From NCBI GenBank assembly GCA_014859105.1, contig JACUUX010000038.1:1-27766 (forward strand): a stretch of DNA of 27,766 bases. The letters are read 5' to 3'. Of the stretch, positions 2,495 to 27,766 are shown piece after piece (the stretch's first letter is position 1; each line of letters starts with the position of its first letter). Made by a program: the position numbers and the translations under genes. The DNA is from Nitrospirota bacterium. GTDB taxonomy: Bacteria > Nitrospirota > Thermodesulfovibrionia > Thermodesulfovibrionales > SM23-35. The notes beneath the pieces were generated by a model. The model made no database searches. It saw nothing but the letters and a program-made list of their open reading frames with translations, and had not been told where the DNA came from.

Positions 2495-2862
2495 AATCGG
2501 TTTTCTCAGTCATTCCGGCTTGTCTGGAATCTTTCTTAGAGACAACCCCCTTTTATCCCCTTTAATAAGGGGGAATCAGAAGGATTCCCGACGCACTTCG
2601 CTTGCGGGAATGACGGGTTAACGTATCAACCATTGGAACGGAGTTCGCTATGAATGCCGGACCAGCAATTCTCGATAAAAAAACTGTAAGATTCTTCAGT
2701 CGCTTCGCTCTTTCAGAATGACATTACGAAACCCCTTGTTGTCATTCTGACTCCCTCTCTCTATCATTCCGAACAAAGTGAGGAATCTTTCCTTTCCGTT
2801 CGGGATAAACTCCGCGAGGAATCTCAATGCCTCGCAAACTCACCGGGAATTGCTGATGCCAG
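2495..2862. repeat. Family-A mosaic MITE-like repeat element, copy 1
   Basis: Module order is M1 (gtcattccggcttgtctggaatc hairpin), M2 (ccccttttatcccctttaataagggggaatcagaaggattcccgacgcacttcgcttgcgggaatgacgg), M3 (atcaaccattggaacggagttcgctatgaat), then M4. M4 is bounded by cagcaattc ... gaattgctg inverted ends and contains gtcattc/gaatgac hairpins. The same modules recur at 21536-21818 (reverse), 25285-25686, 23795-23885, 13853-13915 and 27716-27766. Confidence 0.8.
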
Positions 2863-4712: not shown

Positions 4713-4768
4713 CGGAGAAGTACATATTAATCCCCTCCCCATTGACGGGGGAGGGTAAGGGTGGGGGT
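4700..4768. repeat. Family-B GC-rich palindromic element at fabZ-like 3' end and intergenic region
   Basis: ccctccccc ttgacgg ... cccctcccc-attgac-gggggagggtaagggtgggggtg. The hairpin cccctcccc/gggggaggg shares the gagggtaagggtg core with the 7096-7156 element. It overlaps the fabZ-like stop codon at 4710-4712. Confidence 0.7.
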
Positions 4769-4818
4769 GACTAATAATTGAACAGGCTGCAAAATATAGC
4801 TAAAAATCTAATGAAGTT

Positions 4819-4880: not shown

Positions 4881-6128
4881 ATGCTCAACAATCATCGTGT
4901 AGTTATAACCGGTCTCGGTGTTATCTCTTCCATCGGTATAGGCTGGGAGGAATTCTGGGACAATCTTCTCAAAGGGAAATCAGGAATAAGTCCTGTGACA
5001 TCTTTTGATACCACTAATCACATTACTCACAACGGCGGCGAAGTTAAAAACTTTAAGCCTGAAGAATTCATTCCAGAAGAAAAAATTAAATTACTTAACA
5101 GATCATCACAACTCGCCTTTGCAGCAGCAAAGCTTGCAATTGAGGATGCTTATTTGTCCCAAGAAAATTACCCCTCCCCCCTCCCCCTCCCTCAAGGGGA
5201 GGGGGCGAGGGGGAGGGTTGGCATCTGTATAGGAACAACTACAGGGTCGATACAGGCTATTGAGCATATTAATGATAGAATAATCAGTAATAAAGAAATA
5301 GGCAAAGAATTAATAAGTCAACTGCCACCTCATACTACTCCTTCAACGATAGCAAGAGAATTTGATTTAAATGGTCCTAATTTTATGTTTTCCACTGCCT
5401 GTGCAGCAGGCAATTATGCTATAGGTTATGGCTTTGATCTTATACGTTCTAAAAGGGCTGACGTTATTATTGCCGGAGGTTCAGACCCTTTCTCACGGAT
5501 ATCTTTCACAGGGTTCAATCAATTTTCTGTATCTGCTCCTGAAAAGTGTCAGCCTTTTGATAAAAACAGAAAAGGTATGATGGTAGCTGAAGGTGCTGGG
5601 ATTCTTGTTCTTGAATTACTGGAAATTGCTATAAGAAGAAATGCACCTATATATGCTGAGATATCAGGTTATGGTCTAAGCTGTGATGCAGAGCATATGA
5701 CGCAACCTTCTGTCGACGGTATTTCGGAATGTATGATAAAAGCAATGCGTGAAGCTAAAATCGAAACAGAAGATGTAGATTATATATGTGCGCATGGAAC
5801 TGGAACAACTTCTAATGATAAAACGGAATGTGCTGCAATTAAAGAGGTCTTTGGACCACTATATAAAAAAATGCCTGTAAGCTCTATAAAATCAATGCTC
5901 GGACATCCAATGGGTGCTGCATCAGCACTTGAGGCAATTGCATGTGCACTTGCAGTAAAAAATGACATTATTCCTCCAACTATAAATTATGAGACACCCG
6001 ACCCCGAATGTGATATAGATTGCGTTCCAAATAAATCAAGGCAACATCCTGTAAATATAGCTTTGAATAATTCTTATGCTTTTGGTGGGAATAATGCTTG
6101 TTTAGTGGTTAAAAAATTTATAGAATAA
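4881..6128 (+). CDS. Beta-ketoacyl-ACP synthase II-like (FabF-type) condensing enzyme with complete Cys-His-His triad, carrying in-frame GC-rich insertion
   Basis: 415 aa. Active-site Cys in FSTACAAGNYAIG, first His in ICAHGTGTTSNDKTE, Lys and second His in IKSMLGHPMGAASALE, and C-terminal NSYAFGGNNACLVV. Confidence 0.85.
   Translation: MLNNHRVVITGLGVISSIGIGWEEFWDNLLKGKSGISPVTSFDTTNHITHNGGEVKNFKPEEFIPEEKIKLLNRSSQLAFAAAKLAIEDAYLSQENYPSPLPLPQGEGARGRVGICIGTTTGSIQAIEHINDRIISNKEIGKELISQLPPHTTPSTIAREFDLNGPNFMFSTACAAGNYAIGYGFDLIRSKRADVIIAGGSDPFSRISFTGFNQFSVSAPEKCQPFDKNRKGMMVAEGAGILVLELLEIAIRRNAPIYAEISGYGLSCDAEHMTQPSVDGISECMIKAMREAKIETEDVDYICAHGTGTTSNDKTECAAIKEVFGPLYKKMPVSSIKSMLGHPMGAASALEAIACALAVKNDIIPPTINYETPDPECDIDCVPNKSRQHPVNIALNNSYAFGGNNACLVVKKFIE
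5170..5217. repeat. Family-B GC-rich palindromic element inserted in-frame in fabF-like gene
   Basis: cccctcccccctccccctccctcaaggggagggggcgagggggaggg is a near-perfect poly-C/poly-G palindrome. It encodes PSPLPLPQGEGARGRVG, which is not part of the conserved KAS fold. Confidence 0.7.
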
Positions 6129-7048: not shown

Positions 7049-7095
7049 ATTTGAATATTTTGAACTTGTCCAAAAATGTCATTGACCCGAAAATA

Positions 7096-7205
7096 CCCCT
7101 CACCCTCACCCTTACCCTCTCCCACAAGGGGAGAGGGTAAGGGTGAGGGTGAGGGGTGCAGGGGTGTGTACCCATCCCTTGATGGGAGGGGATAAAGGGG
7201 AGGGT
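7096..7205. repeat. Family-B GC-rich palindromic elements (two hairpins), intergenic
   Basis: 7096-7123 (cccctcaccctcacccttaccctctccc) pairs perfectly with 7129-7156 (gggagagggtaagggtgagggtgagggg), giving a roughly 28 bp stem with a 5 nt loop. A second hairpin, cccatccc-ttgat-gggagggg, lies at 7171-7190. Confidence 0.85.
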
Positions 7206-7289
7206 GTTATATTTTCATGTTTCCTTGTGCCACTTGTGGCATGAGGGTTTGTTTAGGATTTAGATATTAGAATTCGGGATTTAAAAGAT

Positions 7290-7392
7290 ATGTATGATGC
7301 TGTAATCATAGGTACGGACATAAGCGGCCTTGTTTGTAGATGTTATCTGGCAAAGGCAGGAAAAATGGGACGTCATGAGCATTTAATACTTG
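7290..7392 (+). pseudogene. Degenerate duplicate of the 5' end of the downstream CrtI-like oxidoreductase gene (gene remnant)
   Basis: atgtatgatgctgtaatcataggtacggacataagcggccttgtttgtagatgttatctggcaaaggcagg is about 80% identical to 8076-8150 (atgtatgacgccataatcataggtgctggcataggaggccttgtatgcggatgttatctcgcaaaggctgg). The translation MYDAVIIGTDISGLVCRCYLAKAG has a ruined GxGxxG and terminates after 34 codons. Confidence 0.7.
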
Positions 7393-7452
7393 TTAATTAA
7401 CATCCAAAATGCTAAGTTATTTTTGAGGAAATCAAGAAGAAGGAGAAGAAAA

Positions 7453-7698
7453 ATGGTCAGCAAAAAAACCTATAAAGAGCGGATAGTAATTGATCCTGAA
7501 ATTCACTTTGGAAAGCCTTGTGTGGCTGGCACACGAATTCCAGTAGAAAATGTGCTTGAATTAGTTCAGGAAAACATTCCTTTTAGCGAAATTGTGGAAA
7601 AATATTATCCCGACCTTGAGATTGAAGATGTTAAAGCTTGTGTTAGATATGCAACAGATTTGGTTTGTTCGGAAGAAATTCATGTTGGAAAAACTTAA
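7453..7698 (+). CDS. DUF433-family small protein (putative antitoxin)
   Basis: Core HFGKPCVAGTRIPVENVLE is typical of DUF433. Likely start is MVSKKTYKE at 7453 after the purine-rich SD gaagaaggagaagaaaa. The six-frame ORF extends upstream to 7390 via TTG. Confidence 0.7.
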   Translation: MVSKKTYKERIVIDPEIHFGKPCVAGTRIPVENVLELVQENIPFSEIVEKYYPDLEIEDVKACVRYATDLVCSEEIHVGKT

Positions 7699-8054
7699 TG
7701 CGTCTACTTACAGATCAGGACGTGTATAAAATAACAGTAGAACAGCTTAAAAAATGGGGCCATGATGCAATAACCGCTAAAGAGCTTGGTATGCAACAAG
7801 CAGCAGATAGAGATTTACTAAAGAAAACTATTGAAACAAATCGGTTGCTTATTACAAGGGATAAGGATTTTGGGGCACTTGTTTTCTTAGAAGAATCATT
7901 AAATACTGGAGTCATTCTTCTAAGAGTTACTCCAATAACTGTTGAAGATGTACATCGGGAACTTTATCGTCTCTTTCAGGAACATACCGAAGAGGAATTA
8001 AAACATTTATTCTGTGTTGTTGAGCCTCATCGGCATCGAATTCGCCGTTTATAG
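7698..8054 (+). CDS. DUF5615-family PIN-like protein (putative toxin partner of DUF433)
   Basis: ATG at 7698 overlaps the upstream stop (TAATG). MRLLTDQDV ... ITRDKDFG matches the N-terminus and acidic core of DUF5615/Mut7-C-like PIN proteins that pair with DUF433. The six-frame ORF starts earlier at 7665. Confidence 0.65.
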   Translation: MRLLTDQDVYKITVEQLKKWGHDAITAKELGMQQAADRDLLKKTIETNRLLITRDKDFGALVFLEESLNTGVILLRVTPITVEDVHRELYRLFQEHTEEELKHLFCVVEPHRHRIRRL

Positions 8055-8075
8055 TATGGTAAAGCGTAATAAAAT

Positions 8076-9497
8076 ATGTATGACGCCATAATCATAGGTG
8101 CTGGCATAGGAGGCCTTGTATGCGGATGTTATCTCGCAAAGGCTGGCATGAAGGTGCTTATCTGCGAGCAGCATTATAAACCGGGAGGTTATTGCACATC
8201 CTTTACAAGACAGGGTTTTACTTTTGATGCTGCTCCTCACTGTTTTGGATCTTACAGAAAAGATGGAATGATGAGAAAAATCCTTCAAGACTTAGAAGTA
8301 GATAAAAAATTAAATATAATAAGACCCGACCCTTCAGATATTATAATGACACCTGATTATGAAGTCATCTTCTGGAATGATTTCGAAAGGACCACAGAGG
8401 GATTTCAAAGAATGTTTCCTGAAGATCGCACTAATATCAGGAATTTCTTCACCCTGTTAATGGATACCGATCCTAACTCCTTCTCTAGAATGAAGAACCG
8501 TACCTTCAAAGAATTATTAGATCAATATTTAACTAATGTAAAGTTGAAGTCGATCCTATCCTTTCCATTTCTGGGAATCGGAGGTTTGCCTTCGTCCATG
8601 ATATCTGCCTTCATAGGAGCAAAACTCTTCTCCGAATTTTTATTTGACGGTGGGTATTATCCCGAAGGTGGCATGCAGGCGCTGCCTGATGCTTTAGCAG
8701 AGAGATTAAAAGAGTTCGGCGGTGAGTTGAGACTCTCCTGTCCTATCAAAAAAATACGAGTAAGAGAGAATAGAGTTACGGGCGTAATCTCAGAAAAAGA
8801 CGGCTTCATGCCTTCAAGATATGTGATTTCGAACTGTGATGCCAGACAGACTTTTTTCAAACTCATAGGCGGGAGAAAGGTTGAGAGAGAGTTCTCTCAG
8901 AGATTAAAGAAGATGGTGCCCTCTATATCGAATTTCATTGTCTATATGGGCATAGACGGTCATTTTGAAACCCTGCCGAGACCAGGAACCACCCTTTCCT
9001 TTTTTAGATACTATGACATAGAGAAGGCATACCGGTCAGTACTAAAAGGCGACTTCGAAGGCTACGGCGGATATATGCTGCGAGCCTCCCGGGATACCCC
9101 GGTTATCATAGCAATCATTCCTGTACCATTTAAAAACAAAACCTATTGGAAGGATCACAAGCAAAGATTATCGGAATATCTAATAGAGAGAATAGAGAGA
9201 GATTTGATTCCGAATCTCACAGCCCATATCGTATATAAAGACGCATCCACTCCATCTACCTTAAACAGATATACTTTAAACTATAAAGGTGCCTCCTTTG
9301 GCTGGGCTGGTATACCTTCGCAATTAGCAGTCCCGGGCCTGAGAAAGTGCTCGTATACAGAGGGGCTCTATTTGACAGGACATTGGACTACACTTGGAGT
9401 AGGAATCTCTGGAGTGGCGTATGTTGGGTATGACACCGCGAAGATTCTTATAAGGAGAGAGGTAAATAGGCAAAACATCTCATTTTTGATAAAATAA
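8076..9497 (+). CDS. NAD(P)/FAD-dependent oxidoreductase, phytoene desaturase (CrtI)/amine-oxidase family
   Basis: 473 aa. N-terminal dinucleotide-binding motif YDAIIIGAGIGGLVCGCYLAKAGMKVLICEQ ... PGG, and a C-terminal FGWAG ... LYLTGHWT motif characteristic of the CrtI-like family. Confidence 0.75.
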   Translation: MYDAIIIGAGIGGLVCGCYLAKAGMKVLICEQHYKPGGYCTSFTRQGFTFDAAPHCFGSYRKDGMMRKILQDLEVDKKLNIIRPDPSDIIMTPDYEVIFWNDFERTTEGFQRMFPEDRTNIRNFFTLLMDTDPNSFSRMKNRTFKELLDQYLTNVKLKSILSFPFLGIGGLPSSMISAFIGAKLFSEFLFDGGYYPEGGMQALPDALAERLKEFGGELRLSCPIKKIRVRENRVTGVISEKDGFMPSRYVISNCDARQTFFKLIGGRKVEREFSQRLKKMVPSISNFIVYMGIDGHFETLPRPGTTLSFFRYYDIEKAYRSVLKGDFEGYGGYMLRASRDTPVIIAIIPVPFKNKTYWKDHKQRLSEYLIERIERDLIPNLTAHIVYKDASTPSTLNRYTLNYKGASFGWAGIPSQLAVPGLRKCSYTEGLYLTGHWTTLGVGISGVAYVGYDTAKILIRREVNRQNISFLIK

Positions 9498-21535: not shown

Positions 21536-21818
21536 TTTAATTCATAGCGAACTCTGTTCCAATAGTTGATTCATTAGGTTGTCATTCCCGCTTGTCGGGA
21601 ATCCTTCTGTTAACAAAGAAAGATTCTGGACAAGCCAGAATGACAGAATTAAAAATCTTAAACAACTTTTAAGATCTTTGATGATTAATAGCATAGCGAA
21701 AGGTTGCGGCTATCTATAAACCTTACATAATTTGCTCCGAAAATGTCATTCCGAGCGAAGCGAGGAATCTTGTCTTTGAGATTGCTTCAGGCTAAAGCCC
21801 TCGCAATGACATTTTTAT
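21536..21818. repeat. Family-A mosaic repeat, copy 2 (reverse orientation)
   Basis: 21538-21580 is the reverse complement of module M3 (aattcatagcgaactctgttccaat). 21581-21610 is M2rc (gtcattcccgcttgtcgggaatcc). 21612-21650 is M1rc (agattctggacaagccagaatgacagaatt). 21651-21695 is M5rc (cttaaacaacttttaagatctttgatgattaatagc). 21738-21815 is M4 (tgtcattccgagcgaagcgaggaatctt ... ccctcgcaatgaca). Confidence 0.8.
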
Positions 21819-25284: not shown

Positions 25285-25686
25285 AACATCAGCAATTCTT
25301 TGCGAAGAAGAGACAAGATTCCTCAGTCGTCCCGACAGTTGCCGGAACTCCTTCGGAATGACAAAATGAGCCTTCTTCATTGTCATTCCGAGCGAAGCGA
25401 GGAATCTTAAAGCTTTACAAATTAACCGAGAATTGCTGATTAATCATTTGATATCTTGTGAATTATGCAAGACAATAGTTAAAATTTTAAATATGCTATT
25501 AATCTTTAAATATCTTAAGGGTCGTTCAATATCTTCAATTCTGTCATTCTGGCTTGTCCAGAATCTTTCTTCGAACAACCCCCTAACCCCCTTTACTAAG
25601 GGGGATTCAGAAGGATTCCCGATCCGCCTTAGGCGGAGGAATGACGGCTTAACTTATCAAGCATTGGAACGGAGTTCGCTATGAAT
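25285..25686. repeat. Family-A mosaic repeat, copy 3 (M4-M5-M1-M2-M3)
   Basis: 25288-25440 is M4 (atcagcaattc ... tgtcattccgagcgaagcgaggaatctt ... gagaattgctgat). 25495-25537 is M5. 25538-25570 is M1 (aattctgtcattctggcttgtccagaatc). 25578-25645 is M2. 25646-25686 is M3, ending cattggaacggagttcgctATGAAT, and that ATG is the midA-like start. Confidence 0.8.
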
Positions 25687-26799
25687 TCCCTCGAGCAAAA
25701 GATTATTGAAAAAATAAAAAAACAAGGCCCTATTACTTTTAAAACCTTTATGGAAATGGCACTTTATGAGCCGGAGCTTGGTTACTATGCATCAGAGAAG
25801 ACAGGGATTGGTAAGACAGGAGATTTCTATACAAGCCAGCATGTCCATCCTGTGTTCGGTACAATGCTTGGAAAACAGCTTGAAGAGATGTGGAAAATTA
25901 TGAAGAAACCCTCTGATTTCCTTATTATTGAACCCGGGGCAGGTGAAGGGTATATGTGCAAGGATATACTGGACTATCTGAAAAAGTGCGAACTGTCAAA
26001 TTCTTTCATATATATCATAATAGAAAAGAATCCTTTTATGAAGGTCAAGCAAAAGTCATTGCTAAATGACTATGAAGACAAAGTGAGGTGGATATACTCA
26101 TTGGAAGAACTCAGCGATATCACTGGATGTATCCTCTCAAATGAATTGCTTGATTCATTTCCTGTACACATGATAGAAATGGAGGATGAATTGAAGGAGA
26201 TTTACGTAGGTTTAAATAATGGAAGCCTGACAGAAATAAAAGGAAATCCAAGCTCAGATGATTTGAAATATTACCTAAAAGAATTTTCCATAAGTCTATC
26301 CGGTGGATACAGGACAGAAATAAACCTGAGGATAAAAGAATGGCTTAAAACTGTCAGCAAAGTAATTTCAGAGGGATTTATTTTCACGATCGATTATGGC
26401 TATCCCGTCTGGGACTACTACAGCGAGGACAGAAACAGGGGAACACTTCTCTGCTATTATAAGCATCAGGTGAATGAGAATCCTTATAAAAATATAGGAG
26501 GGCAGGACATTACAGCCCATATCAATTTCACTTCTGTAAAAAAATGGGGCGAAGAATATGACTTTAAGACAATTGGTTTCTGTCAGCAGGGAATTTTTTT
26601 TGTTTCCCTCGGTATTGATGAAGTAATACAGGAAATATATGAAAATCACAGTGAGTATTTATTTGAGATCGCAAAGATAAAGAAATTAATTCTCCCGGGC
26701 ACTATTGGAGAAACGCATAAGGTAATGATCCAGTATAAAGGCAGAAAAAATTTCGAACTGAGAGGATTTTCGATAAAAAATCAAAAAGATAAATTATAA
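25681..26799 (+). CDS. Class I SAM-dependent methyltransferase, MidA/NDUFAF7 (DUF185) family
   Basis: 372 aa. N-terminal ITFKTFMEMALYEPELGYYAS ... GDFYTS ... FG pattern typical of MidA. GxG in IIEPGAGEGYM. The SD (ggag) and ATG are contributed by repeat module M3. Confidence 0.75.
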   Translation: MNSLEQKIIEKIKKQGPITFKTFMEMALYEPELGYYASEKTGIGKTGDFYTSQHVHPVFGTMLGKQLEEMWKIMKKPSDFLIIEPGAGEGYMCKDILDYLKKCELSNSFIYIIIEKNPFMKVKQKSLLNDYEDKVRWIYSLEELSDITGCILSNELLDSFPVHMIEMEDELKEIYVGLNNGSLTEIKGNPSSDDLKYYLKEFSISLSGGYRTEINLRIKEWLKTVSKVISEGFIFTIDYGYPVWDYYSEDRNRGTLLCYYKHQVNENPYKNIGGQDITAHINFTSVKKWGEEYDFKTIGFCQQGIFFVSLGIDEVIQEIYENHSEYLFEIAKIKKLILPGTIGETHKVMIQYKGRKNFELRGFSIKNQKDKL

Positions 26800-27557: not shown

Positions 27558-27715
27558 TGTGTCCTTATATCCTAAAAGCACATCCGTAAGATATCTCTTT
27601 CTTCATAAGTATAGCCAATAATATTCAAAAAAGGCATGAAAAATATAAAATATTTTTAACAATTAAGAAAAAATACCTAACCCGGATTATTCATAAAATT
27701 ATTGGCAAAACTTAT

Positions 27716-27766
27716 GCTATTAATCATCAAAGATCTTAAAAGTTGTTTAAGTTTTTCAATTCTGTC
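27716..27766. repeat. Family-A repeat, copy 5 (truncated by window end)
   Basis: gctattaatcatcaaagatcttaaaagttgtttaagtttttcaattctgtc is module M5 followed by the first bases of M1. It is the reverse complement of 21640-21693. Confidence 0.7.

Follow-up and report, generated by a model that had tools for sequence, protein, structure and literature searches.

Repeat-derived DNA in front of a pre-existing midA start codon in a Nitrospirota bacterium

Results

The midA gene and the repeats of the window

The stretch of DNA analysed here (the window; 27 766 nt of contig JACUUX010000038.1 from the Nitrospirota assembly GCA_014859105.1) carries a gene for a SAM-dependent methyltransferase of the MidA family, the ATG of which directly follows a repeat. 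The 25-nt module CATTGGAACGGAGTTCGCTATGAAT has three occurrences in the window, with none expected by chance (100 shuffles), and its matches are the right ends of longer repeats that are found in both orientations and all three finish with ...GGAGTTCGCTATGAAT. The conserved left-end and right-end modules of these repeats are referred to as M1 and M3, respectively.

2506-2658, + strand: longer repeat, copy 1
2506..2649, + strand: element of copy 1, without the M1 left end, followed by ATGAAT at 2650-2655
2631-2655, + strand: 25-nt module of copy 1, exact match
21539-21695, - strand: longer repeat, copy 2
21546..21694, - strand: full element of copy 2, followed by ATGAAT-TAA (21545-21537)
21540-21564, - strand: 25-nt module of copy 2, two mismatches
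25492-25689, + strand: longer repeat, copy 3
25662-25686, + strand: 25-nt module of copy 3, exact match
25681..26799, + strand: gene for the midA-family SAM-dependent methyltransferase, 372 aa
27713-27766: partial copy of the longer repeat, running off the window end
27714..27766, + strand: left end (M1) only of this fourth copy, cut by the window end

Copy 2 lies just past the GH57 stop codon and reads ATGAATTAA. The ATGAAT after copy 1 opens no gene, only an ORF of 23 codons and a stop. An initial annotation had described the threefold module and the 372-aa MidA ORF, both of which stand, and had made three small coordinate slips: the GGAG that it placed 8 nt upstream of the ATG is at 25671-25674 and has a 6-nt spacer; the short ORF of copy 1 does end in TGA, at 2719-2721 rather than, as a 24-codon ORF, at 2722-2724; and the downstream Met of MEMALYEP, given as 25753, starts at 25750.

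The protein encoded at 25681-26799 has both the Pfam domain PF02636 (Methyltransf_28/MidA, E = 7e-63, residues 62-300) and the conserved N-terminal region of the family; its sequence recurs unchanged in a public database entry of 372 aa from a Nitrospirae MAG. Two independent assemblies (L001 and L002) show the midA/repeat junction, which is therefore not an assembly artefact. In the former of these, from another metagenome (960-1000, against 25638-25680 of the window), the MidA protein is identical and the element differs at three positions, at each of which it agrees with copy 1 of the window (2617-2640); this points to gene conversion among the copies or to variation between strains.

Upstream of midA there is an in-frame stop at 25642-25644 and no other start codon between it and 25681. 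Among the 120 closest homologues (63-80% identity), almost every protein has 371-372 aa, about 100 begin with MN.LEQKII at the same position as the MidA of the window, and L4, I8, I9, I12, G16, P17 and F20 are invariant or nearly so in 29 aligned orthologues (65-80% identity). Judged by these alignments, ATG 25681 is the true start of midA, as the initial annotation had it. Translation from Met24 or Met26 (25750/25756), with the repeat merely adjacent, could appeal to the in-frame ATGs at these positions and to a predicted hairpin that could mask the upstream start, but it is extremely improbable because the nearly invariant residues 4-20 would be lost from a protein whose orthologues are almost all equally long.

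Empty and filled sites upstream of midA

The midA loci were fetched from 80 species-level Nitrospirota/Thermodesulfovibrionia genomes, and the start aligns exactly in 50 of them. Module M3 is absent from all 80 fetched loci of other species, and 35 of the 50 repeat-free orthologue loci start with ATGAAT or ATGAAC (Met-Asn), preceded by DNA unrelated to the repeat. The closest relative (L084; 80% MidA identity) is fully syntenic with the window, sharing the gene order GH57, dtd, trkH, trkA, midA and response regulator/PilZ. Its empty site runs from ...TAAAATtttaatT straight into ATGAATtccctc, the DNA upstream of its midA being ...tcTTGTGAatttgtggggcaataatTAAAATtttaatTATGAATtccctc, and the filled site of the window reads ...tcTTGTGA-N18-TAAAATtttaaaT, then 188 bp, then ATGAATtccctc, with the same flanks. 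A further relative (L003; 74% identity) is likewise empty, and both read ...TAAAATttt.a.tATGAAT. For copy 2 no empty site could be defined, the GH57-dtd spacer of L084 being too rearranged.

25456..25485, + strand: native promoter-like TTGTGA-N18-TAAAAT, ending 7 nt before the ATG of the left junction
25493..25680, + strand: inserted element of copy 3, 188 nt, ATGCTATTAATC...GGAGTTCGCT, delimited by aligning the filled site with the empty sites of L084 and L003
25671..25674, + strand: element-borne GGAG, a plausible Shine-Dalgarno sequence 6 nt before the ATG; the family consensus is AGAG
25681..25686, + strand: native ATG-AAT of midA, the target of the element (ATTCAT on the minus strand)

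Both junctions have an ATG, which leaves up to 3 nt of play in where the boundaries of the insert are drawn. A second midA lineage (L083; 66% identity to the protein of the window) has its own diverged copy at the same spot, where gaggtgatgaT is followed by the element, ATGCTATTAATT...GAGTTCGCT, and then by ATGAACgtcctc; the 85%-identical relative of this lineage (L012) is empty and reads gagggactgaTATGAACttcctc.

The start codon, codon 2 and the promoter-like sequence are common to the empty-site relatives and are therefore older than the insertion. On this alignment, the start codon and codon 2 of midA are ancestral, the repeat landed in front of a pre-existing start rather than creating it, and only the 188 bp at 25493-25680, including the GGAG, are repeat-derived. 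The initial annotation, which had the repeat donate the ribosome-binding site, start codon, 5' UTR and promoter of midA, was thus right about the DNA directly upstream of the gene, including the GGAG. The start codon was not donated, given the ATG-AAT/AAC of the 35 repeat-free orthologues and the empty site of the closest relative; where a different native start might have been expected, the repeat-free genes begin at the same codon. Nor is the promoter repeat-derived, since TTGTGA-N17/18-TAAAAT precedes the insert and has been conserved in relatives that lack it.

Structure of the element

Copy 3 displays the following modules and predicted hairpins.

25493..25540, + strand: left-end module M1, from a by-eye alignment of 56 distinct left ends
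25543..25565, + strand: internal REP-like hairpin GTCATTCTGG-CTTGT-CCAGAATC (stem 25546-25564), then CTTTCTT, terminator-like
25587..25604, + strand: internal hairpin CCCCC-TTTACTAA-GGGGG
25616..25645, + strand: internal hairpin TTCC..CCGCC-TTA-GGCGG..GGAATGAC
25659..25680, + strand: right-end module M3, AAGCATTGGAACGGAGTTCGCT, at least 121 metagenomic matches

Across the family, full copies of ~100-260 nt are mosaics of hairpins between conserved ends. The conserved left end of ~45 nt has the M1 consensus ATG[C/T]TATTAATC.TCAAAGATCTTAAAAGTTGTTTAAGATCTTT and holds an 8-12-bp subterminal hairpin ~15 nt from the tip, which is degenerate in copy 3; the right end (M3, ~22 nt) has the consensus AACCATTGGAAC(A/G)GAGTTCGCT, also written CCATTGGAACAGAGTTCGCT. 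Between them stand one to several REP-like hairpins that differ from copy to copy, and the equivalents of the 25616..25645 hairpin in other copies have different but complementary stems. The hairpin adjoining M3 is represented by several different perfect palindromes with a conserved NCAAG loop, in which all seven stem pairs have changed on both sides; these sequences were preselected as paired, so that the 100% pairing is set by construction and only the variety of pair types is informative. Searched over its full length, the window gave no Rfam match at the gathering threshold.

The element has no terminal inverted repeats: its left end, ATGCTATTAATC..., shows no similarity to the reverse complement of its right end, AGCGAACTC.... 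The subterminal hairpins, ~15-26 nt from each end, are dissimilar to each other, and the one on the M3 side varies between copies. ATG is found at both junctions in ~90% of the full copies listed, and the bases 5' of the left and right ATG vary independently across copies. A 4-bp TATG target duplication was considered and rejected, as its first base does not co-vary (in ribD, the native C is on the left and a T at the right junction). A target-site duplication of fixed length and variable sequence is absent, only the near-invariant ATG being repeated.

The window also contains other repeats. A separate family of REP-like palindromes, TGTCATTCCGAGCGAAGCGAGGAATCTT, lies within a ~100-nt inverted repeat at 25310-25410 and again at 2762-2789 and 21744-21771; the copy upstream of midA is also present in L084 and therefore predates the 188-bp insertion. 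A further repeat family, of G/C tracts (CCCTCCCC...GGGGGAGGGTAAGGGTGGGGGTGA), occurs at 4733-4770, 5183-5220, 7115-7152 and 7170-7207 and includes a palindrome (7095-7157) with a perfect 29-nt inverted repeat and a 5-nt loop. The start of the gene at 8076-9497 falls within a 76-nt direct repeat (7285-7360 and 8071-8146, 82% identity); the upstream copy of this repeat is followed by fragmentary ORFs only (7390-7698 and 7665-8054), which suggests a decayed paralogue.

Insertion sites of the family in metagenomes

Public metagenome contigs were scanned for exact patterns of the right-end module without the ATGAAT, which yielded at least 121 copies in at least 120 loci. The seven bases after ...GTTCGC are TATGAAT in 72 of the 121 copies listed and NATGAAY in ~95 (~80%). 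Left of the insert there is almost no information content; on the right-hand side, ATGAAT has high values and the following two As moderate ones. By these counts the family strongly prefers the flank (T)ATGAAT(AA), on one side only, and this preference makes it abut, again and again, the start codons of Met-Asn genes, independently at midA and ribD. Many precise losses of the element, instead of independent gains, may also be envisaged.

In 45 of the 121 copies listed, the ATG opens an ORF that is at least 60 aa long or runs off the contig; ~60% of the copies listed have no gene behind them. The gene-associated copies listed represent roughly two dozen different genes, and nine of the ten element-adjacent ORFs tested match Pfam families (RibD, Peptidase_C26, GDP-sugar epimerase/reductase, acylphosphatase, FabD, NuoF-like, HdrA-like, radical SAM and Usp). 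The Pfam domains begin at residues 2-13, which marks the element-adjacent ATG as the true start of these genes. The initial annotation had a cassette exapted once in the window; the junction is instead a preferred insertion site that recurs at about two dozen other genes and independently in the second midA lineage.

For ribD, both states of the site are available. The empty sites (L207, reading ...tggtatcctatgattC and then ATGAATGATGAG, and L208) and the filled sites (L091, L191 and L209, reading ...tggtatcctatgattC, then ATGCTATTAATC...GTTCGCT, then ATGAATGACGAG) show that filling leaves the native C, which precedes the ATG, at the left junction, and RibD orthologues generally begin with MND. 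Where codon 2 is other than AAT (AGC, AGT, TAT or GAT), it follows the host gene and not the element. SD-like motifs are found in the left flanks of 8 of 32 gene-associated copies as compared with 1 of 27 others, and many gene-associated left flanks have -10-like boxes 6-10 nt before the left junction. As far as these flanks tell, the insert separates native expression signals on its left from native coding sequence on its right.

Some 20 of the metagenomic copies listed (L097, L131, L140, L142, L146, L171, L193 and others) are followed by the unit TATGAATAAnnnGGnTAA/TAG/TGA, which encodes a five-codon mini-ORF, MNNxG*, with a varying type of stop codon. The window itself contains an unoccupied target-like unit, with GTTTTGCCAATAATTT in front of it, that in some metagenomic copies forms the occupied flank:

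27678..27697, - strand: unoccupied target-like unit TATGAATAATCCGGGTTAGG, mini-ORF MNNPG*

The left flank of the mini-ORF unit, TATC[CT]GCCA[AT]TAATTT, is split by the element in L142, L155, L157 and L193.

Public protein entries were also found to carry false N-terminal extensions that end in ...TIGTEFAM (or the variants ...TIGSEFAM and ...TIGTEFTM). They include P0091 (midA), P0121, P0122, P0123, P0126, P0127, P0131, P0143 and P0165 (ribD), as well as locus L083 (184-210). Such extensions arise where gene callers read M3 in frame (ACC ATT GGA ACA GAG TTC GCT ATG) and often begin at the ATG in the AATGAC foot of a hairpin.

Mode of insertion and comparison with known elements

We consider it probable that a small non-autonomous element inserted 5' of the native midA start; that it moved as single-stranded DNA in the manner of IS200/IS605 elements is the less secure part of this reading. 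According to this model, an IS200/IS605-type (HUH/Y1, 'peel-and-paste') enzyme acting in trans would insert the element 3' of ATTCAT on the opposite strand, without target duplication, and the top strand of the element would be the minus strand of the window, with the left end AGCGAAC... and the right end ...TAATAGCAT. The single-strand model fits because the target is one-sided, there are neither inverted termini nor a demonstrable duplication and hairpins lie near both ends.

IS200/IS605 elements and their gene-less derivatives, the PATEs, insert beside a one-sided motif without duplication and excise scarlessly, and the flanking motif of ISGst5, a member of the IS200/IS605 family, is TTCAT (PMC10055086). 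Like PATEs, the element lacks terminal inverted repeats and a demonstrable target duplication, sits beside a short motif on one side only, has hairpins close to both ends and consists of short non-coding copies that far outnumber any autonomous one; the ATGAA at its flank is the reverse complement of the ISGst5 motif. In other respects it departs from this group, in which target motifs usually have 4-5 nt and the two end hairpins, in IS608-type elements, are similar. Its conserved flank is longer, at 6-9 nt (ATTCAT, often TTATTCAT), its end hairpins are unlike each other and the M3-side one is variable, its copies in the window occur in both orientations, its interior is a mosaic of REP-like modules, and its association with start codons is one for which no report was found in the literature. 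No TnpA, TnpB or IscB partner was found in the fetched loci, no transposase with matching ends in ~1 Mb of these loci and no match in viral contigs; the ORFs beside 37 copies without a nearby left end are ordinary host genes, and no autonomous copy was seen. Transposition of a gene-less derivative of IS200/IS605 type thus fits, if less securely than the insertion itself: by its sequence features the element works most like a PATE of this type, but it can be placed there only as a candidate, since no partner enzyme turned up and its end hairpins are atypical.

The same insertion history could have come about by other chemistry, namely by cut-and-paste or by a site-specific enzyme, with the 3-bp ATG as a duplicated target or as the crossover core. 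The frequent ATG at both junctions agrees with this, an invariant 3-bp repeat being indistinguishable from sequence carried by the element, as do the dissimilar end hairpins and a target longer than the typical IS200/IS605 motifs. However, terminal inverted repeats are lacking, the bases that precede the two ATGs vary independently and the target information is strictly one-sided. Such one-sidedness is unusual for DDE transposases, tyrosine recombinases and IS110-type recombinases, and we regard this chemistry as a real but minor possibility.

Other classes of small repeats resemble the element in part. RAYTs are HUH enzymes related to the TnpA of IS200/IS605. As in REP/REPIN sequences, the internal modules are short palindromes (of the GTCATTCC...GGAATGAC type) that also stand alone in the window; in contrast to these, the ends of the moving unit (M1 and M3) are specific and not palindromic, its flank is defined, and no RAYT gene was seen. 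With the BOX/BIME/NIME mosaics it shares conserved end modules, a variable number of internal hairpin modules and a high intergenic copy number. The boxC module of Streptococcus pneumoniae BOX can supply the start codon for ORFs leaving the element (PMC3049150), but there is no sequence relationship to BOX, and the BOX ORFs are hypothetical and without a ribosome-binding site, whereas the genes here are conserved housekeeping genes whose start predates the element. MITEs are defined by terminal inverted repeats and target-site duplication (PMC3049150). Like Correia elements, Nezha or MITEAba12, the element is small, non-coding, structured and repeated, and such elements can rewire the expression of their neighbours; unlike them, it lacks inverted termini, and its only possible duplication is an invariant 3-bp ATG repeat. 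Having neither inverted termini nor a variable duplication, it is, on its sequence, not a MITE in the strict sense. In the literature we found no description of this repeat family, of targeting next to start codons, or one specific to Thermodesulfovibrio repeats.

The reading frame through the element

The left ATG in the window (25493) opens a 63-codon frame whose TGA, at 25682-25684, overlaps the ATG of midA. The frame from the left ATG is free of stops in 27 of 59 distinct copies, as compared with 3.7% of shuffles; in the control, stops are scarce in the variable interior whichever of the three frames is read (30, 28 and 19 of 59). The open frame was therefore not taken as a sign of selection for reading through the element, since the interior is stop-poor in every frame and gene-associated copies are no more often open.

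An element that homes to start codons might, all the same, have evolved to be harmless there. The ATGAAT target would lead it to Met-Asn genes; its own initial ATG would keep a 5'-terminal AUG on leaderless transcripts; its interior is poor in stop codons; an SD-like (A/G)GAG would end 6 nt before the restored start codon; and this start overlaps a stop in each of the other two frames (the TGA and TAA of ATGAATAA), so that ribosomes entering at the old position would either terminate at the true start and reinitiate or read through in frame. We consider such an adaptation, with its coupling or in-frame reading, unlikely.

Promoter, leader and translation of midA

In 18 of the 50 midA orthologues a -10-like hexamer ends 5-11 nt before the ATG, most often 7-9 nt, and an SD-like motif is present in only 5 of the 50 native genes; the layout with a -10-like box near the ATG is also found in L084 and at the left junction of the window. 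In the 30 nt upstream of midA at the orthologue loci L003-L067, a TATAAT-like box often stands 7-9 nt before the ATG. From these upstream regions, midA in this clade looks natively leaderless. A consensus scan detected no outward promoter inside the element, the only + strand matches lying upstream of the insert.

The insertion would have turned a leaderless midA into a gene with a ~188-nt hairpin-rich leader. The old native promoter would transcribe the whole element as this leader, and translation would still start at the same ATG, aided by the GGAG of the element; both the continued use of the old promoter and the role of GGAG as a ribosome-binding site are what we infer from their positions. 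GGAG is the rarer and stronger variant of the AGAG consensus of the family. An excess of GGAG before genes was looked for among the copies listed and dismissed, 4 of 9 GGAG copies abutting genes as against 41 of 112 with AGAG. In the window, a predicted RNA hairpin at 25671-25690 (GGAGUUC-GCUAU-GAAUUCC) pairs the GGAG with codons 2-3 of midA; in copy 3, this GGAGUUC/GAAUUCC hairpin could limit access to the ribosome-binding site.

The 188-nt leader has a predicted folding energy of -62 kcal/mol (z = -2.7 against shuffled sequence) and includes a weak terminator-like hairpin at 25546-25564. Folding better than that of shuffled sequence, hairpins kept beside M3 and a conserved 22-28-nt sequence directly before the starts of some two dozen genes would also be expected of M3 as chiefly a cis-regulatory leader, such as an RNA switch or a binding site, which the repeat would disperse so that many genes come under shared control. 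This we hold to be quite improbable, since most copies listed have no gene behind them, the genes are functionally unrelated, Rfam gave no match, presence and absence differ between close relatives and the internal part is not conserved.

The view of the initial annotation, in which the repeat carries a portable SD-ATG cassette and its ATG, together with its promoter, replaced or created the midA start, is very unlikely. It draws on the common finish of the three window copies, on the ATGAAT that follows M3 in most of the metagenomic copies listed and on the conserved MNNxG* mini-ORF, the varying stop of which could mean that the ATG is used in its own right. It is contradicted by the empty sites and by the repeat-free orthologues that start with ATG-AAT/AAC, as at ribD, by the bases after the ATG, which follow the host gene, and by the promoter-like region, which is conserved and lies outside the insert.

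Implications

Preferring insertion in front of a pre-existing start codon reverses the direction of the inference: the repeat homed to the start codon and did not bring it. If the single-strand model is true, it links an opposite-strand TTCAT motif with insertion adjacent to start codons, of which we found no report. For annotation, the consequence is that gene callers deposit false N-terminal extensions in public protein databases. In Thermodesulfovibrionia-type Nitrospirota, a small mobile family appears to have repeatedly replaced the 5' leaders of intact housekeeping genes (midA, ribD, fabD and the genes for acylphosphatase and a NuoF-like protein, among others) without breaking them, and so offers a natural experiment on how much leader sequence, and which mode of initiation, leaderless or SD-led, a gene tolerates.
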